Part shown: piece after piece, positions 4,198-61,041 of the stretch
Layout: each line of letters begins with the position of its first letter
How positions within the stretch are numbered: position 1 is the stretch's first letter
Sequence record: NC_048170.1
Strand: one strand, 5' to 3'
Length of the DNA: 64,000 nucleotides
Source: Escherichia phage vB_EcoM_Goslar
Notes under the pieces: model-generated
What the model saw: only the letters and a program-made list of their open reading frames with translations
The model's database searches: none
Told to the model about the DNA's origin: nothing
Translations under genes and position numbers: made by a program

Positions 4198-4827
4198 TTA
4201 TTCAACAAACCCTGCGTTCAACAGATTGTCGTAAACACGATTAGCGACATCAACAGGAGAATGTGTGTTACTGGTGTCTATACACAACGTTTTCGCGTCG
4301 CCGAGATAGTCCATAAAATCCATGTAACGATAACGTCGTTTATTGAATGTCGCTTCATCGATGTTATCAAACATCTGATGTTTAGCGTGACGAACACGGA
4401 ACCGTCTTAAATACGTAGGATAGTCGATATCCAGATAAACATAGTAAGACGGCATGATAATCGACGGTAGGTTCGGCAACAATGCGTCAAACAACTTAAC
4501 GTTGGCATCATTAACCTGATAAACATACGTCGAAGCAATCGAACGATCGCTAAGCACAGTCTTCCCTTCGTTAAGGGCTGGATGAATCACCTTGTTGAAG
4601 AGATGATTGCGTTGCGACATCATCGCCAATAGCTCAGTTTCTGGATCGAATCTGTTCGTTGGCGTCTGATCTTCCAGGATAAGTTTACGAATGGCTTCTC
4701 CGTAGAGCGTACCACCAGGTTCGCGTACGACACAGACATTGTTTAAACGACTATGTAAAGACGAGATAACCGAACTCTTTCCTGAATAATCCAGGCCTTC
4801 AATAACGATATATTTATTACGAGACAT
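4198..4827 (-). CDS. tmk: thymidylate (dNMP) kinase-like protein
   Basis: P-loop IVIEGLDYSGKSS near the N-terminus, size about 210 aa; track start is TTG, first ATG at 4825-4827 has GGAG 9 nt upstream. Confidence 0.7.
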   Translation of the reverse strand: MSRNKYIVIEGLDYSGKSSVISSLHSRLNNVCVVREPGGTLYGEAIRKLILEDQTPTNRFDPETELLAMMSQRNHLFNKVIHPALNEGKTVLSDRSIASTYVYQVNDANVKLFDALLPNLPSIIMPSYYVYLDIDYPTYLRRFRVRHAKHQMFDNIDEATFNKRRYRYMDFMDYLGDAKTLCIDTSNTHSPVDVANRVYDNLLNAGFVE

Positions 4828-4843
4828 TCCCCGCTCCAATTAA

Positions 4844-6019
4844 CTACTTCGTTTTCGCCATTATCGGCTGCGATACTGTAATCTCGACCCGATCGACATC
4901 GGTACGTTTAACGATGATAAGGCTGCGTTCATCACCGAATGGTTCTGAGATCTTACAAGCCTCTTTAAGATTTTCGAGAATCTTGCCATGGGGTTCAAAC
5001 ACCGCAAAACCGGAACTAGCGTCGATTCTTATTAGACTTACACGCGTGCCGTTTACGGTAATAACATCTTCCGTCTTGAATTCACAACAGGAGGGTAGAC
5101 GGAACTGGCCGGGAATACCGGCTACGTATGCCTCACCACCGAACATTTCTATTAACGTCACTGGTTTGAATGTTTTCTCTGGGAAAGCATTATTAAGGAT
5201 ATCGTTTCCATTCACAAACCAGATCGTTACTTTATCTTCGGAATACGCTAGTCGGTACGGTTGGGTTGCGGACGCTTGCGCTTTATGTTGGTTAAACAAC
5301 TTTGATTTTGTCGCAATCACAGCACGACCTTGGGCGTCAAAGTACAGAACTTCATACCCAACACATCCGATAAACACGCGACGGTTATTAAGTTCCGGAA
5401 TTCTGACTACTAACGCATTACCGTCTTCCGTCGGTGTAATGCCGCGTAGGACGATCGATTCGTTATTCAATACTGAGTTGTCCACAACGATGCTTCGCAT
5501 TACCGCTGGGGTTACTGTTTTATCTGCGGTAGGTTCAGGTTGCTCAGCAATGCGGTCAAAAGGTTCGATGGATACCATGGGAACGAAGTATTCAACTATA
5601 TGCTTGTTTGCAGCACCAACGTCCATGACGGTGATCTGCAAACGCGTAGCATCCGAATTCAATGCTTGTTTCACACGTTCTGCATTAGGAGTATCACGGT
5701 CAATACGAATCAAGGCTTTTACCACACCGTCGTCTTCCAACCATCCCGTTAAAACGCGACCGACGATATCGTTCACGTCACGAATCGGGAAGCACAGTTC
5801 AGCGCCATCGAGCACCGCTTCGATTTTACTGCTAATGACGGGCACCTTACCATCGTTAAGATGCGCCAGCAGACCGGTTAATGCACCTTCACTAACCGGA
5901 TGTTTTGTCGTCGTACTGACCAACGGTACGATAAAACGATCTTCGCTGTATTTCTCTGCACCACAGATAACCGGGACTTGAGGGCATCGATCAACCAGAC
6001 CCCATTCAACGGTATTCAT
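4844..6019 (-). CDS. hypothetical protein
   Basis: Long ORF 4844..6097 (TTG start); internal ATG at 6017-6019 has the strong SD AAGAAGGA and avoids overlap with the upstream RuvC-like gene; 5' end uncertain. Confidence 0.45.
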   Translation of the reverse strand: MNTVEWGLVDRCPQVPVICGAEKYSEDRFIVPLVSTTTKHPVSEGALTGLLAHLNDGKVPVISSKIEAVLDGAELCFPIRDVNDIVGRVLTGWLEDDGVVKALIRIDRDTPNAERVKQALNSDATRLQITVMDVGAANKHIVEYFVPMVSIEPFDRIAEQPEPTADKTVTPAVMRSIVVDNSVLNNESIVLRGITPTEDGNALVVRIPELNNRRVFIGCVGYEVLYFDAQGRAVIATKSKLFNQHKAQASATQPYRLAYSEDKVTIWFVNGNDILNNAFPEKTFKPVTLIEMFGGEAYVAGIPGQFRLPSCCEFKTEDVITVNGTRVSLIRIDASSGFAVFEPHGKILENLKEACKISEPFGDERSLIIVKRTDVDRVEITVSQPIMAKTK

Positions 6020-6053
6020 AACGTTTTTTCCTTCTTGGGTTTTGTACATGTTG

Positions 6054-6668
6054 CTAACGGCGTTTTGTACCGACCTTCCCATTTCGATGGTCATCAAGAA
6101 TACGCCATTCTTCGAACAGGAGTTCGGCTGCGAAATAACCTACAGCGATGCTGTCTATCGCATGCTCATCAAGATTCGCTAACACAACACCGTTTCTGGG
6201 TGTGATGTTCATGAGGTTCAACACTTTCTGGCGAACATCGTCCTTACCAACACGGGACGTCATGATCCCAACAGCACGTTTCGCGCTTCGGTTATCAACC
6301 CCTAAGAAAGACACCGTAGGATCAAAATCGATAACCGTTGTCTGAATCGCTGAAAACAGCTCGCTGAGCGCCATCCCGCTTTGCTTGAAACGACCGATGA
6401 ACGGTGTCTCACAAGCAACCGCTTGCGGCTGGTACTCTTGCAATAACGTTGTCAGCGAACGACGGTGTTCTTGGATACGTGCGGCACGATTACCGTATCC
6501 AAGCGCAATATCGCCATCAGGATCATATCGACGTGAAGCGTGCCATGTCCCCGCATACAGCAGTTCAATATCTTCGACACGCACGTCCAAACGTAGTAAC
6601 GACGCACCGAGTGTATCGGTGCCAGGGTCGATTGCCAGAATATCGTAAGCGTATTCTGGTGGGATCAT
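6054..6668 (-). CDS. ruvC: RuvC-like Holliday junction resolvase
   Basis: N-terminal ILAIDPGTDTLG (RuvC IDPG acidic motif), ACETPF, C-terminal DEHAIDSIAVG; ATG at 6666-6668 overlaps the upstream stop as ATGA. Confidence 0.6.
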   Translation of the reverse strand: MIPPEYAYDILAIDPGTDTLGASLLRLDVRVEDIELLYAGTWHASRRYDPDGDIALGYGNRAARIQEHRRSLTTLLQEYQPQAVACETPFIGRFKQSGMALSELFSAIQTTVIDFDPTVSFLGVDNRSAKRAVGIMTSRVGKDDVRQKVLNLMNITPRNGVVLANLDEHAIDSIAVGYFAAELLFEEWRILDDHRNGKVGTKRR

Positions 6669-7477
6669 GGTGTTACAACAGCCTCTACTGACCATGGGAA
6701 GGTTTTCGCAACAACACCTTCCAGGAAGCGTTCAACTTCCGATTGCTCATACACCGAAAGCTTTTCGAACGGCGTTTGGTCTTCGGTTAAACCTACCGCA
6801 TGAATAGGACCCAGGTCTTTAACCAGGGTAACTTCGCCTTTAACGCCTTCGCGCTTAACGATGATCGCATGATCGTTAACCTTGGGATCGTACAGCACGC
6901 GCATCATGGTTACCGCGTCATCCGGTTCATAACCGAAATCGATAGCAACACGAGCATTCGTCCCTTCATCGTCCAGAAGCTTGCTTAGCGCTTTACAACG
7001 GTCTTCAATCCAATCCAACGCCACCACGGTTTCTTGGCGTAGCTGAACCTCAACCTCTTTTCCTTGTTCGTCGATACGTTTCACGGTAACAAAATCGTGC
7101 AATAAACGGTCAGGAAGGAGAGAAGCAATAAGCTCAACGTCGGGTTCAGGTTTTTCGTTTTCCAGAATGATGGTCGCTTGTGCGTCCAGATGTTCTTTAA
7201 AACGGATGTAGCGCGTTAATCGCAGAACCTCGTCTTGGGATTTTGCGTTTTCGGGAATAATCTCCGTCATGACGTTATAAATCTTTTCAGCGAACGTCGG
7301 AATTACGGTGATTGTAATTCGTGCTGGCGTACCACGCTCCTGGTACTCATCGGCTAACTTCTTCGCCATCCCGTTAAAGTAGGTCTGGAGAAACGGTTGC
7401 TGCGTTAAAAACATTTTCTCCAGATCGGAATAGCGATGCTTGCGTGCATGGCCCAGCTTCTTCATCGGCTTTTTCAT
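6665..7477 (-). CDS. hypothetical protein
   Basis: About 270-aa ORF directly downstream of the SbcC-like gene; start chosen at the second ATG (AAGGA spacing 9). Confidence 0.45.
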   Translation of the reverse strand: MKKPMKKLGHARKHRYSDLEKMFLTQQPFLQTYFNGMAKKLADEYQERGTPARITITVIPTFAEKIYNVMTEIIPENAKSQDEVLRLTRYIRFKEHLDAQATIILENEKPEPDVELIASLLPDRLLHDFVTVKRIDEQGKEVEVQLRQETVVALDWIEDRCKALSKLLDDEGTNARVAIDFGYEPDDAVTMMRVLYDPKVNDHAIIVKREGVKGEVTLVKDLGPIHAVGLTEDQTPFEKLSVYEQSEVERFLEGVVAKTFPWSVEAVVTP

Positions 7478-7498
7478 CAACATAAATCCTTATTTATC

Positions 7499-10069: not shown

Positions 10070-11158
10070 ATGAGCGATCTGGCAACAGACAATCGCACAA
10101 AAGGGAGTCAGCTAGCTCCAGACAACAACGTAAGCGTTTTCCGTATCTATGCCTTGGGTACTGTTGCTGCCGACTTTTCCAATAAAAGTCTGGAGGAAGA
10201 TCCTAACCAGACGCTGGAGGTCTTTCTTGATGAGATGATGTCAGGCGCTGATGGGAAAGTTGAAGCGGCGGGAAGCGTTAAAGAAGTCAGTGCAACAGAC
10301 GCTCAAGGGAACAGTTATACGGCGAAAGCGGCAACAACAACCAGCGTACAGTGTTATTGGTTACCTTTCGGCAGTAACCGGATGACAGCACCTAACTTGA
10401 GGAAAGGTCAGCGTGTGGTGGTCTGGCGTACCGCCGATGAAGAACAACTCTACTGGCAACCCAAAGGAGGGGATAGTGAGTTGATGACCATGGAATCGGT
10501 TATCCTCACCGTCAGCGCACGTCCTAGCGCTAAGAAGGACCGTAAATCGATTTCAACGGAAGACTGCTATTACCTAATGGTTGATACCTTCCTCAAGAAA
10601 GCGGTTATCGGCACCAGCGCACAGCTTGGTGAAGTTACCCAAGTTTACATGGAACTTAATCTGGACGAGGGTTACCTACAGGTTGCGGACAGCGTCCATC
10701 AAAATCTGCTGTTACTCCATTTCGTTGAACATATGCTACGTTATCAAAACCAGGACGACAGCATCATCGACGTGACAAAAAAGAACATCACATTCCAGTG
10801 CGAGGATACGCTCAAAGCAATCGCTAAGAACGATATCCGAATGAAAGCAAAAAACATTTATACCGAATGTGAGAACTTCGAACGTACCAGCAAAACAGAA
10901 AGCGTTACGAGCCAGAATGTTTCTTTGAAGTGTGATCGTTACACGGCGCAAGTATCAGGACAGACCACGTTTAAATGTCCGAATACGGTATTCACTGGAG
11001 CTGTAAGCTTCACAGGTGAAGACGGAAACACGATGACGTTGAATGGGAACTTCATACACGTCGCAGGCTCTTGGCGTTCACCAACCGGAACAAACGTATA
11101 CACCCACGATCACGGTGGTGTAGATCGTGGTAGTGGTCGTACAGACCCGTTCCAATAA
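10070..11158 (+). CDS. possible baseplate central spike protein (gpV/gp5-like OB-fold)
   Basis: YWLPF...GQRVVVW...YWQPKGG resembles the gpV/VgrG OB-fold signature; C-terminal THDHGG could be a metal-binding HxH tip; AGGAG SD; low certainty. Confidence 0.3.
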   Translation: MSDLATDNRTKGSQLAPDNNVSVFRIYALGTVAADFSNKSLEEDPNQTLEVFLDEMMSGADGKVEAAGSVKEVSATDAQGNSYTAKAATTTSVQCYWLPFGSNRMTAPNLRKGQRVVVWRTADEEQLYWQPKGGDSELMTMESVILTVSARPSAKKDRKSISTEDCYYLMVDTFLKKAVIGTSAQLGEVTQVYMELNLDEGYLQVADSVHQNLLLLHFVEHMLRYQNQDDSIIDVTKKNITFQCEDTLKAIAKNDIRMKAKNIYTECENFERTSKTESVTSQNVSLKCDRYTAQVSGQTTFKCPNTVFTGAVSFTGEDGNTMTLNGNFIHVAGSWRSPTGTNVYTHDHGGVDRGSGRTDPFQ

Positions 11159-11185
11159 ACAGAAGAAAAAAGAAATGCTATACAA

Positions 11186-11220
11186 CCTCCTTCCCTAGCC
11201 GTCAAGGCCGGGGAAGGAGG
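11186..11220. terminator. conserved intergenic stem-loop (variant loop), between convergent genes
   Basis: cctccttccc-tagccgtcaaggccg-gggaaggagg; 10-bp outer stem, U-rich flanks on both strands. Confidence 0.5.
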
Positions 11221-11235
11221 ATTATAGTTTATTTA

Positions 11236-11625
11236 TTAACGCGTTGCATTCTGGATGATTTCTTTTCCGATCTTAACCAAAGCGGGTATCTGTACAGCGG
11301 TTGCGCCTCGATGACGAAACGCGGTCGTTAACGCAGTATCGATACTCACCGCACGTCCATGAAGACGATCGAAATAGACTTGAGTGATTGCGGTAGCGTA
11401 ATCCTTTCGCTGTTTCTTGGTTTGGCTCAACAGCGCCGCACTATGACTAACGATGAAGTAAGCGATTAAGAAGAACGCCGCTGAACGCGAACCGGGTAGA
11501 AAACCTTGTCGCTTAGGGAGCATCTCACAATCGCGAACACTATTATCGTTCGCCAGCTCTTCCATATCAACACAGCATAATTTTGCATAGGTGTGGAGAT
11601 AGTGGGTAAAAGTTGAATTTAACAT
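11236..11625 (-). CDS. hypothetical protein
   Basis: 129-aa ORF, ATG with GAGGAAAG SD; last gene of a minus-strand block of 8 small genes. Confidence 0.45.
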   Translation of the reverse strand: MLNSTFTHYLHTYAKLCCVDMEELANDNSVRDCEMLPKRQGFLPGSRSAAFFLIAYFIVSHSAALLSQTKKQRKDYATAITQVYFDRLHGRAVSIDTALTTAFRHRGATAVQIPALVKIGKEIIQNATR

Positions 11626-11730
11626 TTTCTTTCCTCGATTACAATGAGTTCAATGTATAGCTTAAACGTCACAGAACGACGTATAACAGTTTGTTTTAAT
11701 TTCTAAGGGGTTTCCTTATCTAAGATTGAA

Positions 11731-12093
11731 TTAAAGCGCTCTGAAGAGTTCTGTAGCGTTCTCGTCACGTAAACAGGCTTCGTTCAACAATTCAGCTAAC
11801 AGCTTCGACCGAACTTCAACAAATGTCCTGAGGCGATGCTCCCATTCTAAACGGATAGTGTACGTATTATCCAGGTTTTTGTAATCAACGACAGATGTAG
11901 AACAACGGGCTTCGCGTTTGTTCACAGCACTCCAAACATCACGGATAACCATCACGCCTTTCTTGGTACACGTAAACGTTAAAATAAAGCGATTATTCGC
12001 TGCTTCTTCACGGACATGACTAAATTCACTTCGTAACGATGAGACTTTGATAAGTCGGTCAATAGCTAACGATAAACCGATACGTTGTTGCAT
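11731..12093 (-). CDS. hypothetical protein
   Basis: 120-aa ORF, SD AAGAGGGG; start lies 1 nt from the stop of the upstream gene. Confidence 0.45.
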   Translation of the reverse strand: MQQRIGLSLAIDRLIKVSSLRSEFSHVREEAANNRFILTFTCTKKGVMVIRDVWSAVNKREARCSTSVVDYKNLDNTYTIRLEWEHRLRTFVEVRSKLLAELLNEACLRDENATELFRAL

Positions 12094-12094
12094 A

Positions 12095-12520
12095 TCAAAT
12101 CCCCTCTTTCAGAATCTCATTAAGACCGTCAGTAATCCAGTCGAACTTCGTCTTAATCATGGCTGGGTTCAATCCATATACTTCCCACACAAGCTGGGGT
12201 TTATGTGTTCCATCGTCCAAACAAAGCACATCGATTGAGAGTACCATACCACCCGTCAATTTCATGTTCTCGCAACTACGAAGATATGCGGATTCTAGCA
12301 ATACTTTCCCTAACGCAGTGCAAGCAAATGTTAACCGGGAAGAGTACAGGTACGATGACGTTTTACAGTAGGTTGCTGATATCGGTTGAATATGTTTGCG
12401 GAGTTTGGCGTCTTCACGTAAAAGCAATAACGTGTGATGTAACCGCGTATGCTCGGTAACCGATGAGCTATACTCACCGATGCACTCTTCGGCGACTGAT
12501 TTAGGCCATTTAATTTTCAT
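12095..12520 (-). CDS. hypothetical protein
   Basis: 141-aa ORF, SD GAGGAA 7 nt upstream of the ATG. Confidence 0.45.
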   Translation of the reverse strand: MKIKWPKSVAEECIGEYSSSVTEHTRLHHTLLLLREDAKLRKHIQPISATYCKTSSYLYSSRLTFACTALGKVLLESAYLRSCENMKLTGGMVLSIDVLCLDDGTHKPQLVWEVYGLNPAMIKTKFDWITDGLNEILKEGI

Positions 12521-12535
12521 GTTCGATTCCTCGTA

Positions 12536-12979
12536 TTAACACTGTGTTCCATTCGATAAGCGGGTGGTATCAAAACGATCCAGTTGGTGTACAATGCTAT
12601 CAGCAACACGATGCAAATAGTGTATTTTGTCCATTCGTGAAATCGCAGAAATCGTCCAGCAAGCCTCTGACGTCCAATAGGTGCCGTCTTCACTAAGGCT
12701 AACGTTATAAACTAACTTCGTCATCACATTTCTCGCCTTATGCTCAGCAGACCAGAATATGTTTTCTAACACATCCTTCCCCGTTTGTGAAAACACGAAC
12801 CCAAGCTTCACGTCGAAGTCGGATGCTTCAAGATTAACGCAGTGAAGATGATTCTCTAACGGCGCAAAAGAGGCTAAACGTTCCAGCGCATGTTGCAGTG
12901 TGGGATGATCGAGCTTTTCGAGATCATCCGCAGGTTGTTCAGGTACAATCGCGATCGATTTACAGAATTTAATTTCCAT
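12536..12979 (-). CDS. hypothetical protein
   Basis: Track ORF 12536..13057; internal ATG at 12977-12979 has SD AAGAGGA; a GC hairpin sits just upstream. Confidence 0.4.
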   Translation of the reverse strand: MEIKFCKSIAIVPEQPADDLEKLDHPTLQHALERLASFAPLENHLHCVNLEASDFDVKLGFVFSQTGKDVLENIFWSAEHKARNVMTKLVYNVSLSEDGTYWTSEACWTISAISRMDKIHYLHRVADSIVHQLDRFDTTRLSNGTQC

Positions 12980-13091
12980 GGCAGGTTCCTCTTGATAGTG
13001 GTTGATGATAGTAACGGGGACGGCGATGTCCCCTTGGTTTCTTATTGCCCCGCCCAAACCCGATGGGGTACAGGCGGGTGATGTTGATGCG

Positions 13092-13499
13092 TTATAGCGG
13101 CATCAGACGTTCTTTAAGTTGGGTTAACTTATTTGCAACGATGGTCTCAACATCGATGATCTTGTTCATGTTGTCGAGGGTATCCTGCCAGATGAAAATA
13201 TCCACGGAACCGGTTCCGACTAACGCGTTCTCAGGACGATGGTCACGGGTCACGTAGCGTGGTCCCTGCGGGCAGGTTTGTAACTCGATCCAAAGCGCAT
13301 CTAACGGACCACGGTCCGTGACACCTAAGGCGAAGAATTCACCTCGTACGACCAGAACATCATCAGCCGTCCTGACACGGGTTGATCCTTCGTACACCAA
13401 TTCCATCTTTGCTCGACAGGCTGGGTTCTCGTTCCACGCCTGGACGGCATCGGCAAGGGCTATTGACGTTGCGGTGGTGTTCGTTTGATCATGTTGCAT
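13092..13499 (-). CDS. hypothetical protein
   Basis: 135-aa ORF, SD CAGGAG. Confidence 0.45.
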   Translation of the reverse strand: MQHDQTNTTATSIALADAVQAWNENPACRAKMELVYEGSTRVRTADDVLVVRGEFFALGVTDRGPLDALWIELQTCPQGPRYVTRDHRPENALVGTGSVDIFIWQDTLDNMNKIIDVETIVANKLTQLKERLMPL

Positions 13500-13576
13500 T
13501 CTAAGCTCCTGTAACGCTCTCTAAGCGTCGTTTTAAGTTAAGGTATAGTTTCCCTTCTTTGGATTCGTTTATTGCG

Positions 13577-13852
13577 TTATACGGCTTTTCTGTGCGCGTA
13601 GAACGCCTTCGTTCCGTTGTTGATTGCTTCAACCACATCCCGGGTTAACACAACGGCGTTATCGCTTCGAGACGACGGTGCGTAATACCCTTCACCGTTC
13701 TCGGTAATCAGGCGATAACGGACTAAGCCTATGCTCGGTTCAACACGTAGCACCTTCTCAAGTTTGTATTTGATGATCTTCGTCAGGCTGACTGTGTCTG
13801 ACGCGTAGATTGCTTTATAAACCTTGTTCTTTGCTGTCGGTTTCATCAACAT
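13577..13852 (-). CDS. hypothetical protein
   Basis: 91-aa ORF, weak SD. Confidence 0.35.
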   Translation of the reverse strand: MLMKPTAKNKVYKAIYASDTVSLTKIIKYKLEKVLRVEPSIGLVRYRLITENGEGYYAPSSRSDNAVVLTRDVVEAINNGTKAFYAHRKAV

Positions 13853-13892
13853 GATTTCTGTTGTACTTTCCTTTTCGCTTGTTGGTGTTGGA

Positions 13893-14192
13893 TTAAGGTT
13901 TAGGTTCCGTTTTGTGTTGTGCGAGTAGTGTGTTGATCTGCTCCCGTTGTTCTTTTAAGCATGCGGGAAGCTGGTCTTCCCGTACCGTTCCGATTTCCAA
14001 CGTGATGTACCAGCGTTGTTCGGAAGCCTGCCATTGAAAACTGCTCTGTAGCCGTAGGATGCTAGGATCACGTACCTTGCTTGCGCTGTAGCGATCGAAC
14101 CAATCCAGGTAAGCGGCTTTCCCTTCCTCGTCGGCAACGTAACGCTGCACGCTGTTCTTCCCTTTGTTCTCGTATCCCGTTGCACGTATCAT
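13893..14192 (-). CDS. hypothetical protein
   Basis: Track ORF 13893..14246; ATG at 14190-14192 gives an ATGA overlap with the upstream stop (pattern recurs in this window). Confidence 0.4.
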   Translation of the reverse strand: MIRATGYENKGKNSVQRYVADEEGKAAYLDWFDRYSASKVRDPSILRLQSSFQWQASEQRWYITLEIGTVREDQLPACLKEQREQINTLLAQHKTEPKP

Positions 14193-14971
14193 GCGAGCGT
14201 TGCTCCTGCATCGTGTTGCGGATAGCGTAGCATGGTAGCATCCCATTGTACGATCCGGCTCCGGCTTACCCGCATCATGATGGATTCATCGTCAAGACCC
14301 GGCTGCGCAACCGGCAACCAACGTTCGTTAAGCACCTTCGCTTCAACGCGTTTCTTGCGGGGATTGTAACGCACCTCGCTAACCCAAGCGAATCCAAGCG
14401 GATGCACAACCCGCGGATAATACATGCGAAGCAATTGATGCATCCGATCTGTTACCTCCAAGCTCGCCTCCGCCATGTAAGGTTTCACCATGGTAAGCTT
14501 TTTGGTGTAATACGTTCCAACGGTATGGTTCGCCCACCCAGGAAGCGCGTGATGGAATCCTACCTGTAATTGTGTATTACCGTTCACCTTCAGCCATCCG
14601 TATTGTCCCGCTGCACGTCCCTCGTCGGTATCGATCCATGTAAGTATATCGATGAATGCATGATCGGTGATCTCGATGCGTTCCACCCGTTCATCCAACG
14701 CACCACGTACCACGAATCCGCTCGTGCTCATCCGTGCAGGATGCTGGCTGCGATGTGCGTACCAATTCTTGTTGCTGGTAAGCAGGTAAGGATACAAGTG
14801 TGCGCCACGCCAAACAACCTTTCCGTTCGTCCCGTCAACGCAGCGTACGCGCATCCCAGCCTGACCGCTGCTGTAGCATGCTACCTTCACGCATTCCGCT
14901 TGCACCGTTGTCGGTAACGCCAGGTATTCATCTTCGGTAAACATCGTATCAAAAATCAATGCTTCTTTCAT
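14189..14971 (-). CDS. hypothetical protein
   Basis: 260-aa ORF, SD AGAGGAA 9 nt upstream; first gene after the AT-rich non-coding island and promoter-like motif A. Confidence 0.5.
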   Translation of the reverse strand: MKEALIFDTMFTEDEYLALPTTVQAECVKVACYSSGQAGMRVRCVDGTNGKVVWRGAHLYPYLLTSNKNWYAHRSQHPARMSTSGFVVRGALDERVERIEITDHAFIDILTWIDTDEGRAAGQYGWLKVNGNTQLQVGFHHALPGWANHTVGTYYTKKLTMVKPYMAEASLEVTDRMHQLLRMYYPRVVHPLGFAWVSEVRYNPRKKRVEAKVLNERWLPVAQPGLDDESIMMRVSRSRIVQWDATMLRYPQHDAGATLA

Positions 14972-15052
14972 TTAAAAAGTTCCTCTGTTTCACGTTAATT
15001 AAACAACGTATTGATTTCTATTTGACAGAATACGAACAGTGTACGTATCTAT

Positions 15053-15076
15053 CATGAAGGTAATGTAGTCGTGAAA
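15053..15076 (-). promoter_or_regulatory. conserved promoter-like motif, copy A
   Basis: Minus-sense TTCACGACTACATTACCTTCATGA; one of four near-identical copies, about 80 nt upstream of the 14971 start. Confidence 0.45.
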
Positions 15077-15638
15077 GGATTTGTGTTACAGAAAGGGTTT
15101 TGTTTGTTTTAAGAAGGGATGGATTTAGAAGAGGTGTTTCAAGGAAGGTAAACGAGGATAGGTATTTTGATTTAAGTAAGCAAGTAAGATGTTATCTGTA
15201 TTTGTTAAAAGTGTATTGTCTATGTTATCTTGTTTATCTTAGGTTATGTCTTATTGTTCAATCGTTTTATCTTGGTATGTTTACGTTGTTTTTATTTATC
15301 TTAAATTAATTTAAAAGTAGATCAATAAGCTTATCTTCAAAACAATGGATAACATGTGTTTACTACCTTAACGGTAACACATGTCATCTGTGCATTACAC
15401 TACGTTACATGCTAGTTAAATCGGATAACTCAAAAAACCATTTGTGATACTCTTCTTCACGTTGTTCATCAGAGTATCTCGTCTATACTCATTGCATTCG
15501 TATACGACATAACCGTTATACGCTAACGCTACGCTTATAGCTTGATAACTCTAAGGATAAAAACATAAACTCGCTTCGCTCGTTTAGTTTTTCTTTTTCT
15601 TAGAGTTATCCTGTTGCTCGTCTCTAAAGGACTTCGCT

Positions 15639-15666
15639 CCTCCCCCGTCCCCCGAAGGGGCCGAGG
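15639..15666 (-). terminator. degenerate member of the stem-loop family (CCCC-CGAA-GGGG core)
   Basis: cctcccccgtcccccgaaggggccgagg inside the non-coding island. Confidence 0.3.
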
Positions 15667-15777
15667 TCGTGGAAATTTTACTTTCCAAATACATTTACAA
15701 CATCTGTAAACTTTTACTCCAGGTACTTAATCTTATCGTTAGAAATTATAAAAGAGAAGAATAAACACAAACATAAA

Positions 15778-15810
15778 CCTTCCTCCAACCCAACAGGGAA
15801 GGAGGAAGGG
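15778..15810 (-). terminator. conserved intergenic stem-loop terminator
   Basis: ccttcctcc-aa-ccc-aaca-ggg-aa-ggaggaagg directly after the stop of 15826..16719; minus-sense hairpin followed by UUUAUGUUUG. Confidence 0.6.
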
Positions 15811-15825
15811 AGAGCTTGATTTTAA

Positions 15826-16719
15826 TTAATCAGCAGTGTTATAACCGAATACTGCTTTACCGTAGGTGTGGGTACCGTTAGCTAATGACAGCACCAACAC
15901 ATGGTTGTACGTAGCGTTAACACCATTGTCGGTAGAACTGGTGGTAGCACCGTTATAGACAAAGGTAGCTGTTTGCAGATTGGCTTTCAGCTCGGTGATG
16001 ATCTCATCACTTACACCGGTCTGCTCTTTGATCAGCGTGGTCAGGTTACCTGCCAGGCTTTCATTGATCTTGGTTTCGTTATTGGTAATCCCCTGTAAAC
16101 CTGCAGTGTAGGTGCTGAAGTCTAACGGATAGGTTAACAGACGTGCTGACGTTTTGGTACCATCGCCTTCATCAACGTAGGTTAAGTTACCCAGGTTGGT
16201 AACCTTGATGATGTTAGCCAGATCCAGCGTAGTGTTATAAACTTTAACTTGAACAGAGCCATACCACGCCAACGAATCTTCTTTGGCTTCCAGGGTGATC
16301 GTCTGGATACCATGCTCGTTGAAGGTAACCGGATTAGATAACGTATCGGCTTTGATGTCTTTATCTTTATCCAGGAACTTCTCACCGGTCGGCGTGATCA
16401 TACCGTAGCGTTGAGCTACAAGGTCAACCACATCACCGATGGTGGTGTCAGCAGTAACGTTAACACGTACAGCGATTTTCTGGAACCACTTAGCCAGATC
16501 CAGACGATGGTAGGTAACATCGCGGTTATTGAAGTAAGGGGTACCTTCACCAGGGCTAAGCGTTAAAGTTGCGTCTGGAGCAGAATCACTTTTGGATTTA
16601 AGGACGTATTTAAGGTCGGTATATTTGAAGTTGGCACCAGTGTCAGTGTTGAGTTTGTTAATCTCATCAACGATAAGTTGCCAAGGTGTTTTTAAAGTAA
16701 GCGATACTTGAGTTGCCAT
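15826..16719 (-). CDS. virion-type protein, paralog family A (YxRxD and LAWxGSV motifs)
   Basis: Contains TYHRLDLAKWF and LAWYGSVQVKV shared with four other ORFs; optimal-codon-rich; SD GAGGT. Confidence 0.55.
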   Translation of the reverse strand: MATQVSLTLKTPWQLIVDEINKLNTDTGANFKYTDLKYVLKSKSDSAPDATLTLSPGEGTPYFNNRDVTYHRLDLAKWFQKIAVRVNVTADTTIGDVVDLVAQRYGMITPTGEKFLDKDKDIKADTLSNPVTFNEHGIQTITLEAKEDSLAWYGSVQVKVYNTTLDLANIIKVTNLGNLTYVDEGDGTKTSARLLTYPLDFSTYTAGLQGITNNETKINESLAGNLTTLIKEQTGVSDEIITELKANLQTATFVYNGATTSSTDNGVNATYNHVLVLSLANGTHTYGKAVFGYNTAD

Positions 16720-16861: not shown

Positions 16862-17404
16862 ATGGCCTTAGACTTTAACAAAGCAGCAAAATCCCTTCTG
16901 CTTGATCTTATCAACACCAAAGCAACCCGTTCACTGGCCGAACAAGAACTGCAGTTCGGTACTCCGGCGGCATCTTTCGAACATTCTAAGAACACCGTTA
17001 TTCAGCTGGACGCTGCGCCTGAAGCAGAAAACCTGCAGGGTACTCAGCAGTTCTACTACGATCGTCTGGCTCTGTCTGACGTTTTCGCTGATGTAACCGG
17101 CGATGTTACTTTCGAACTGCCGCACGGTACCGACAGCATTCAGGCTTCTGAACTGGTGAACAAACTGGTCACCAAATTCGGCCTGGCTTCACTGAACGGT
17201 GAAATCAAAGAAGAAACCTTCCAGCTGTCTGGAGGTACTGTTGGTCAGGTAACTCTGAATGCGATCGAGAACGGCCTGGTATATACCGGCACTCTGCAGG
17301 TTGCTCTGACCTATGCAGCAGCACCGAAAGACCAACTGGCAACCGTTCTGGCGGATAACGTAGCTGATGGCTTCGTGAAACCGACCGTTAGCGTTGTTGG
17401 CTAA
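16862..17404 (+). CDS. short paralog of family A, predicted highly expressed
   Basis: QFYYDRLALSDVF and LVYTGTLQVAL motifs; strongly optimised codons (CTG, CGT, ACC, GGT, GAA); SD GAGGA 9 nt upstream. Confidence 0.6.
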   Translation: MALDFNKAAKSLLLDLINTKATRSLAEQELQFGTPAASFEHSKNTVIQLDAAPEAENLQGTQQFYYDRLALSDVFADVTGDVTFELPHGTDSIQASELVNKLVTKFGLASLNGEIKEETFQLSGGTVGQVTLNAIENGLVYTGTLQVALTYAAAPKDQLATVLADNVADGFVKPTVSVVG

Positions 17405-27745: not shown

Positions 27746-27777
27746 CCCTCCTCCAACCCGTAAGGGAAGGAGGAGGG
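27746..27777 (-). terminator. conserved intergenic stem-loop terminator
   Basis: ccctcctcc-aa-ccc-gtaa-ggg-aa-ggaggaggg; minus-sense hairpin followed by UUAUGUUUGG; sits between convergent genes. Confidence 0.6.
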
Positions 27778-43250: not shown

Positions 43251-43274
43251 TCACCTAGGTAATGTAAGCGTCAA
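43251..43274 (-). promoter_or_regulatory. conserved promoter-like motif, copy C
   Basis: Minus-sense TTGACGCTTACATTACCTAGGTGA, about 35 nt downstream (minus sense) of hairpin 43310-43339 and ~150 nt upstream of the 43100 start. Confidence 0.45.
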
Positions 43275-43309
43275 ATTTTTTCTATTCGCAACGATAAACG
43301 GCATAGAAA

Positions 43310-48106: not shown

Positions 48107-48138
48107 CCCTCCTCCAACCCGTAAGGGAAGGAGGAGGG
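48107..48138 (-). terminator. conserved intergenic stem-loop terminator
   Basis: ccctcctcc-aa-ccc-gtaa-ggg-aa-ggaggaggg; on the minus strand followed within ~10 nt by a U9 tract; between convergent genes. Confidence 0.6.
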
Positions 48139-49716: not shown

Positions 49717-49740
49717 TCATCTAGGTAATGTAGTCGCGAA
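49717..49740 (-). promoter_or_regulatory. conserved promoter-like motif, copy B
   Basis: Minus-sense TTCGCGACTACATTACCTAGATGA, about 35 nt downstream (minus sense) of hairpin 49776-49807. Confidence 0.45.
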
Positions 49741-49775
49741 ATAAACTGGAGTAATGCGAAATAAGACAGCATAAG

Positions 49776-61008: not shown

Positions 61009-61041
61009 CCTTCCTCCAACCCGTAAGGGAAGGAGGAAGGG
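61009..61041 (-). terminator. conserved intergenic stem-loop terminator
   Basis: ccttcctcc-aa-ccc-gtaa-ggg-aa-ggaggaagg; minus-sense followed by UUUUAUGGCG. Confidence 0.6.

Follow-up and report, generated by a model that had tools for sequence, protein, structure and literature searches.

An early, hypervariable gene block (gp021-gp014) of the nucleus-forming phage vB_EcoM_Goslar as a candidate accessory cassette operon

Escherichia phage vB_EcoM_Goslar is a nucleus-forming jumbo phage of E. coli belonging to the Chimalliviridae. The 64,000-nucleotide (nt) stretch of its genome analysed here (record NC_048170.1; hereafter the window) carries on the minus strand a block of eight small genes, P1 to P8 in the order of transcription, which exact-sequence look-up identifies as the annotated hypothetical proteins gp021 to gp014. 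The block lies behind a promoter matching the early consensus of related phages, is expressed independently of the phage nucleus, and ends at a terminator-like hairpin. Its alleles and gene number vary strongly among Goslar-like genomes, whereas core genes on its flanks are almost invariant. On balance, here it is proposed that gp021-gp014 is an early hypervariable accessory cassette operon, acting as a counter-defence or host-interaction array.

Allelic variation and gene organisation

The block was compared among 13 distinct Goslar-like contigs, of which two came from IMG/VR, ten were retrieved via the P8 sequence and one via a paralog. In these contigs the flanks (the gene for an SbcC-like protein, gp013 and the open reading frames (ORFs) 4198-4839, 6054-6695 and 6665-7483) are 98-100% identical to the window in amino acid (aa) sequence, while both the gene content and the alleles of the block vary, as in a plastic or accessory region. 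P1 and P3-P7 fall into separate allele classes, and P2 into a narrower range of alleles (Table 1); the divergent classes have 38-78% identity. P8, the conserved last gene, is 100% identical in the loci that were retrieved without P8 as the exact query. The allele classes assort independently: compared with Goslar, one locus (L010) differs essentially only in P7, another (L011) in P6 and P1, and a third (L002) only in P1. Most loci have eight genes in the block, with nine in L008, ten in L014 and 11 in L001, L005 and L009. These differences stem from additional P1 paralogs (277-297 aa), a further gene of 145 aa and the loss of one of P5/P6, as in L014. The 145-aa gene was considered as a P4 paralog on account of collinear motifs in a MAFFT alignment; hhalign gave an expect value (E) of 0.09, which leaves this relationship unsupported.

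Substitution rates, computed over 14 genomes, separate the block from its surroundings. The mean nonsynonymous rate (dN) of P1-P7 is 0.04-0.35, against 0.001-0.007 in the core flanks (10-100 times higher), and the ratio to the synonymous rate (dN/dS) is 0.18-0.38 for P1-P7, 0.10 for P8 and 0.01-0.05 for the core flanks. The synonymous rate itself is also raised: dS is 0.3-1.2 in P1 and P3-P7, compared with 0.05-0.2 for the flanking genes, a range in which P2 (0.21) stays. Because of this raised dS, the alleles are taken to be older than the genomic background and to have been moved by recombination. Such variability is not a property of early genes in general but of the gp014-021 operon, since another early block of the same phage, gp001-004, is conserved at 93-100%; of the early operons compared, gp014-021 varies most. 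Nearly all copies have intact reading frames, with one shortened P4 in L011.

All eight ORFs are genuine genes and not chance ORFs, as shown by an ATG start and a Shine-Dalgarno site in every case, by dN/dS values below 1 and by the peptides of gp016-018. The most plausible start was taken for each ORF; with these, a GAGG/AGGA-type ribosome-binding site lies 5-11 nt upstream of the ATG in all eight, and these sites are conserved. A first-pass annotation made from the sequence alone had placed eight successive minus-strand ORFs here, and their coordinates proved exact. It had also described the genes as joined by 1-nt gaps or ATGA overlaps, which applies to two of the seven junctions only: the P2 start lies on the P1 stop in an ATGA overlap, and P6 and P7 are 1 nt apart. 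The remaining five, from P2/P3 to P7/P8, are spacers of 40, 77, 112 (P4-P5), 15 and 105 nt. P2 directly follows P1 in every locus examined.

The GC content at third codon positions (GC3) shows a step within the operon, from 0.55-0.58 in P1-P4 to 0.40-0.47 in P5-P8, which suggests different histories for the two halves. The block is bordered by structural genes, namely gp013 for a baseplate tail spike on one side and gp022 and gp023 for high-copy virion-associated DUF7941 proteins on the other. The adjoining SbcC-like protein is closest to proteins of phiKZ-like phages (24-28% identity), in agreement with the placement of Goslar in the Chimalliviridae.

Table 1. Genes and other features in and around the gp021-gp014 block, with positions in the window and identity of the alleles in related contigs.
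Feature	Position	Strand	Description	Identity to the window
P1 (gp021)	14189-14971	-	260 aa	classes 90-95 / 60-61 / 42% (overall 41-95%)
P2 (gp020)	13893-14192	-	99 aa	90-99%
P3 (gp019)	13577-13852	-	91 aa, basic, pI 9.8	classes 98-100 / 74-78%
P4 (gp018)	13092-13499	-	135 aa, acidic	classes 97-99 / 92-94 / 38%
P5 (gp017)	12536-12979	-	147 aa	classes 99 / 63 / 54%
P6 (gp016)	12095-12520	-	141 aa	classes 99-100 / 55-56 / 48%
P7 (gp015)	11731-12093	-	120 aa	classes 94-98 / 72-74%
P8 (gp014)	11236-11625	-	129 aa, basic, one hydrophobic stretch (residues 49-67)	
Motif A, early promoter (virion RNA polymerase type)	15052-15076	-	TTTCACGACTACATTACCTTCATGA, 81 nt upstream of the P1 ATG	
Motif A, other copies from the pattern scan	2552-2576, 43251-43275, 49717-49741	-		
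Terminal hairpin and U-tract	11186-11220	-	-30.3 kcal/mol, z -4.87, between convergent gp014 and gp013	
Other copies of the hairpin family	~15778-15809, ~27760-27777, ~48120-48138, ~61009-61040			
Two stem-loops in the 112-nt P4-P5 spacer	13016-13078	-	-35.5 kcal/mol, z -2.2	
AT-rich non-coding region	15077-15825	-	~750 nt, between the gp022 terminator hairpin and motif A; context, outside the operon	78-92%, with indels
gp013	10070-11158		baseplate tail spike	98-100%
gp022	15826-16719		high-copy virion-associated DUF7941 protein	88-92%
gp023	16862-17404		high-copy virion-associated DUF7941 protein	49% in two loci
Flank gene	4844-6097	-	417 aa, late-expressed	60-64 / 88 / 94%

Promoter, expression and termination

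The sequence upstream of P1, motif A, was turned into a degenerate pattern and used to scan the 64-kb window, where it matches four times (0.00 expected), on the minus strand in each case; the same pattern is also matched exactly upstream of P1 in 11 of the 13 related contigs. Motif A agrees with the published early (virion RNA polymerase) promoter consensus of 201phi2-1, phiKZ, EL and OBP; the published forms are TTTRARR-BTATATTAC-DWHDGTG for 201phi2-1, TATATTAC for phiKZ and WTTTYAAACCTACATTATY for EL. The Goslar core is CTACATTACC (CTAYATTACYT) at the place where phiKZ has TATATTAC. The early operons of phiKZ, 201phi2-1, EL, OBP and N1M2 have the same promoter architecture (TTT..., C/TATATTAC, about 4 nt, GTG), and phiKZ-like early operons further resemble the block in early nucleus-independent expression, in strings of small orphan genes (ORFans) and in end hairpins of intrinsic type. 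They differ from it in the core sequence, and the block proteins have no detectable sequence relation to theirs.

Published RNA sequencing (RNA-seq) data are available for a knockdown of ChmA, the nuclear-shell protein, which blocks nucleus formation, and consist of one 30-min comparison with read counts per gene; the resulting transcriptome corresponds to the early wild-type programme, transcribed by the virion RNA polymerase from the infection vesicle (Armbruster et al., bioRxiv 10.1101/2023.09.20.558163). Under the knockdown, gp014-gp021 stay expressed, with a log2 fold change (log2FC) of +0.8 to +1.4, whereas gp005-gp013 and gp022-gp036 on either side drop, with log2FC of -3 to -7 (supplementary table of the same study, bioRxiv 10.1101/2023.09.20.558163). 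The block thus belongs to the early, nucleus-independent expression class. Three further blocks of the window resist the knockdown, namely gp001-004, gp037-040 and gp044-047 (bioRxiv 10.1101/2023.09.20.558163). Judged from gene order and protein masses, each copy of motif A appears to precede one such block (gp004-001, gp021-014, gp040-037 and gp047-044). The published expression data validate the motif, which is effectively the early promoter of Goslar. The block therefore carries two marks of a Chimalliviridae early transcription unit, the promoter consensus and nucleus-independent transcription, and the proposal of the first-pass annotation that it sits behind a control region is upheld by them.

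Read density, computed from the published counts, is roughly level from gene to gene in the block, at 0.7-1.6 reads per nt, and a search with the motif core found no second promoter core inside the block; because of these two observations, gp021-gp014 is likely a single early operon. Matches to host sigma-70 promoters are not enriched in the block and are fewer than in shuffled sequence.

The hairpin at the end of the block belongs to a repeated G+C-rich CCTTCC...GGAAGG family (CCTTCCTCCTTCCC ... GGGAAGGAGG), near-identical copies of which lie at the ends of gene blocks (Table 1). Two copies of the family were folded, with z of about -4.9. The members are probably terminators, acting bidirectionally where genes converge. 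Within the operon, the two stem-loops in the P4-P5 spacer are a possible internal attenuator or processing site, as judged from predicted folding; this spacer is much shorter in loci with divergent alleles, and for that reason the stem-loops are probably not conserved there.

Upstream of motif A, the AT-rich non-coding region contains several inverted repeats and is kept in all 13 related contigs (GC content is 0.365 in 15001-16000). No convincing ORF was found in 15077-15825, and no Rfam family matched in 10900-16000. Motif A, the AT-rich island and the family-type hairpin at the end of the block had all been anticipated in the first-pass annotation and are borne out.

Protein families and homology

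P1-P8 had no match below E 0.04 in Pfam, PHROGs, NCBIfam or PADLOC, with zero matches to the PADLOC defence-system models at E up to 1, and the PDB sequence searches gave no match. No match was found either when all eight were compared by tblastn with 50,697 phage records (E up to 1), nor was any close DNA relative found in the phage collection; Goslar itself appears to be absent from this collection, as well as from the complete E. coli genomes and the GTDB representatives. A P1 profile built from 19 alleles and run with HMMER against 1.84 billion representative proteins returned six matches only, corresponding to two P1 representatives and four longer paralogs with a common C-terminal domain. 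One of these paralogs was looked up and sits in the same block of a Goslar-like contig. On these library, tblastn and profile searches, no block protein has a homologue outside Goslar-like phages, housekeeping proteins included, and the proteins are established as genus-restricted. The absence of recognisable motifs noted at first sight is thereby confirmed. The literature search returned nothing specific on Goslar gp14-gp21.

At 90% identity each block protein falls into a cluster of 76-405 members, and many of these members sit on contigs of 235-245 kb that derive from isolate assemblies of Salmonella, E. coli and Shigella or from Logan/ENA runs; Goslar-like contigs in Logan/ENA number in the hundreds. 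Association studies can thus draw on a large series of natural alleles.

P1 is the founding member of a paralogous family, whose extra members in some genomes were described above. In its alignment, the N-terminus and a C-terminal domain (about residues 143-250, including YYPRVVHPLGFAWVSEV and EAKVLNERWLPV) are conserved and an AHRSQHP motif is present; these parts flank a hypervariable centre at residues 31-71 and 91-142. Mean pairwise identity is 23-40% in the centre against 74-91% in the core, and regional dN/dS is highest at 91-142 (0.75, with saturated dS), compared with 0.08-0.22 between close alleles. The variation takes the form of discrete alleles between genomes. A diversity-generating retroelement as its source was rejected, as the 64-kb window has no template repeat; second copies of block sequence in the window do not go beyond chance matches of at most 31 nt. 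The AlphaFold2 model of P1 is of low confidence, with a predicted local distance difference test score (pLDDT) of 52.8, and Foldseek against the PDB returned only noise.

P5 and P6 are tandem paralogs over their full length (hhalign probability 91.7%, E 8e-7). P7 is probably a shorter third member of this family, with hhalign E of 6e-4 against P5 and 5e-3 against P6; BLAST single linkage unites the three through divergent alleles, and they have in common the motifs L-x-F-x-C-T/S-x-x-G-K and D-G-T-Y...W. The AlphaFold2 model of P6, made from a 27-sequence alignment, is confident (pLDDT 89.9, predicted template modelling score 0.84) and consists of an alpha/beta fold in the order helix, beta-hairpin, helix, beta-hairpin, helix. 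Structure prediction, which had been suggested as a check on each ORF, gave a confident model for P6 and a low-confidence one for P1.

Against predicted viral structures, the best Foldseek matches of the P6 model are uncharacterised jumbo-phage proteins of 140-165 aa (E 9e-5 to 2e-3, template modelling score 0.46-0.59), found in PhiPA3 (gp356, annotated as phiKZ gp290-like), 201phi2-1 (B3FJY3), the Erwinia phages Stratton, Simmy50 and Kwan, Klebsiella phage RaK2 and Vibrio phage VP4B. The likeness is in fold, without profile-level sequence similarity (hhalign E 0.16), and the literature search found nothing on phiKZ gp290. From these predicted models, the P5/P6/P7 fold may be a module that occurs widely in jumbo phages. 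The nearest known systems also include TYW3-like UPF0130 proteins and the Mfd C-terminal domain; P5-P7 have neither a Pfam or PDB profile match to TYW3/UPF0130 nor its signature motif.

Proposed role and alternatives

In the mechanism proposed here, the virion-packaged RNA polymerase would begin to read the block from motif A on the injected DNA, at a stage without a phage nucleus, and would stop at the terminal hairpin. The eight soluble or weakly hydrophobic non-structural proteins would then act in the host cytoplasm. P1-P7 would form an array of accessory cassettes, each with a few discrete, old and divergent alleles that are swapped gene by gene via recombination, and with paralogs that are gained and lost. 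In P1, the conserved N-terminus and C-terminal domain would serve as a scaffold on which the hypervariable central surface sets specificity, with P2 as a translationally coupled partner, and P5, P6 and P7 would be triplicated small alpha/beta binding modules. Discrete old alleles swapped singly, variable centres on conserved scaffolds, and gene gain and loss are what is expected of proteins that meet polymorphic partners. Since the phage DNA is hidden from nucleases, these partners would most plausibly be host factors or cytoplasmic protein-sensing immunity early in infection. Such immune systems exist, as Avs5 senses the early chimallivirus protein JADA at the infection vesicle. The likeliest role of the array would therefore be to meet polymorphic host factors, by inhibiting defence, by engaging takeover targets or by escaping sensors of early phage proteins.

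The block resembles known kinds of loci in several respects. T4-like phages have a conserved core genome and, at its periphery, hyperplastic or plastic regions of early ORFans; these are short stretches between conserved modules, with small early genes of variable content and alleles that are dispensable singly. In contrast to these, the variation in Goslar is mostly allelic replacement at fixed positions plus paralog expansion, rather than unrelated insertions; its cassettes are syntenic with conserved gene ends, and the phage family and the RNA polymerase differ. Early anti-defence clusters, such as T7 gene 0.3 (Ocr) and anti-CRISPR loci, contain small orphan genes behind an early promoter and undergo rapid turnover. 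The block is like them in its position behind an early promoter, in the small size and orphan status of its genes and in its rapid turnover, but the family-library and fold searches found no sequence or fold similarity to known inhibitors, and no associated regulator gene was recognised. JADA (Pa36 gp316) is likewise early, chimallivirus-specific, of novel fold and exposed to host immune sensing; it is described as essential and family-conserved, whereas the block proteins are genus-restricted, variable and without a PDB sequence match.

Early ORFan operons behind virion RNA polymerase promoters and plastic accessory regions are both known kinds, and the block is not a new kind of genetic element. 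In the literature searched, no description was found of the organisation into allele cassettes, of the P1 and P5/P6/P7 families or of the agreement of motif A with the expression blocks. The first-pass annotation had seen here the likeliest place in the window for an undescribed accessory system, of which the accessory part stands (hypervariability, 8-11 genes, flanks 98-100% identical); the genes were already annotated and their expression values already published. Host takeover or anti-defence, which it had also suggested, is a candidate function; the variability of alleles and gene content is what an accessory host-interaction region would show.

Several points weigh against this interpretation. 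Function is demonstrated for none of the eight proteins, and no sequence or fold link to known anti-defence proteins was found. P8 is invariant and P2 nearly so, and the unit is not uniformly accessory. No dN/dS exceeds 1, and selection among close alleles is purifying; these estimates do not demonstrate positive selection. Old alleles have been kept and shuffled, and other selective forces could give the same pattern. The related loci were chosen with a preference for differing neighbourhoods, and counts of the allele classes are not allele frequencies. The expression data compare a knockdown at 30 min and give neither a time course for each gene nor a mapped start site.

The discrete alleles under purifying selection also fit escape followed by stabilisation, and it is conceivable, at low probability, that the proteins have phage-internal early jobs, for example at the infection vesicle or in setting up the nucleus, with the alleles being variants that escape host sensors and not inhibitors. 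Host STAND NTPases do sense early chimallivirus proteins (JADA by Avs5), and the conservation of P8 and P2 is as expected of proteins with a fixed job. However, members can be lost or duplicated, as seen in L014 and in gene numbers of 8-11, which argues against indispensable internal functions, and the block proteins have no homologues in other chimalliviruses, whereas core proteins of JADA type are family-wide.

The wide occurrence of these phages in bacterial isolates brings in inter-phage competition or control of a carrier state, in which the block would act, for example, in superinfection exclusion or kin discrimination and the alleles would be specificity types. Of the 60 Goslar-like genomes known, 59 come from Enterobacteriaceae isolate assemblies, as persistent phages; members of the block's protein clusters lie on the contigs of 235-245 kb from isolate assemblies already mentioned, and discrete balanced allele types with early expression fit exclusion systems. 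We hold this explanation to be unlikely, as sequence or structural evidence for an exclusion mechanism is lacking, and only P8 has a hydrophobic segment, P8 being the invariant member.

A more specific idea, which is tentative and also rather doubtful, is that the P1 family with its coupled P2 is a modular specificity system of persistent Goslar-like jumbo phages. The conserved P1 scaffold would present an exchangeable hypervariable recognition region, and extra paralogs would be stacked in some genomes. If this is true, infection by the phage or its persistence in given Enterobacteriaceae strains, or in the face of given host defence or sensor variants, would depend on the alleles. The triplicated P5/P6/P7 module would, on this idea, be part of a fold family common to many jumbo phages.

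In a caesium chloride (CsCl)-purified virion preparation analysed by label-free mass spectrometry, gp017 is represented by four peptides (12-29 estimated copies), gp018 by two (2.5-6 copies) and gp016 by two (<1 copy), giving a range of 0.4-29 for gp016-018; gp014, gp020 and gp021 have no peptides among the mass-spectrometry rows listed. The peptides prove that P4, P5 and P6 are translated. They also allow for some members, P5/gp017 above all, being low-copy virion proteins injected with the DNA, which we consider very improbable. The non-virion proteins chimallin (84-198 copies) and PhuZ (113-268 copies) are far commoner in the same preparation, and carry-over is therefore the simplest reading. 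Copies of gp017 exceed those of its paralog gp016 and remain below those of the contaminants. None of gp014-021 is among the 28 proteins of the Goslar virion cryo-electron microscopy model, the detected gp016-018 fall short of stoichiometric presence in the virion, and the block genes lack the late, nucleus-dependent expression of the neighbouring structural genes. The block proteins are established as non-structural, and not late-expressed virion components, by their expression class, the virion model and these copy numbers.

That the genes are evolutionary filler, ORFans under relaxed constraint without selected function, would fit the lack of homologues and recognisable domains and a dN/dS raised over core genes, but is largely refuted and most improbable given a dN/dS of 0.18-0.38 overall and 0.08-0.22 between close alleles, nearly all frames intact, conserved ribosome-binding sites, detected peptides, P1 cores conserved beside variable segments and the confident compact fold of P6; purifying selection within allele classes, intact frames and this fold together exclude junk.

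Nucleus-forming jumbo phages keep their DNA out of reach of restriction and CRISPR, and conflict with the host would therefore run largely via early proteins exposed to the cytoplasm. Goslar is a laboratory model, and persistent infection is widespread in Salmonella, E. coli and Shigella isolates. With a short, delimited list of genes and natural alleles that span 38-95% identity, the block supplies candidates for the functions by which chimalliviruses counter defence, escape sensors or persist.

Other genes near the block are polymorphic as well. Beside the operon, gp022 is only 88-92% identical throughout and gp023 has an allele of 49% identity in two loci, so the early cassette operon adjoins a second variable locus, of the late virion class. 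Further away, the late-expressed 417-aa flank gene (Table 1) is polymorphic with a dN/dS of 0.41, while its neighbours are 98-100% identical; its product has no PHROG match and may be a host-recognition or other conflict gene. Beside the endolysin gene, three contigs have a 369-aa gene with a faint Stc1-domain match (L005 94-1203, L007 2208-3317 and L009 52-1161, on the minus strand in locus orientation). This gene is missing at the endolysin position in Goslar and in most other contigs, a presence/absence polymorphism, and it could be a mobile element.

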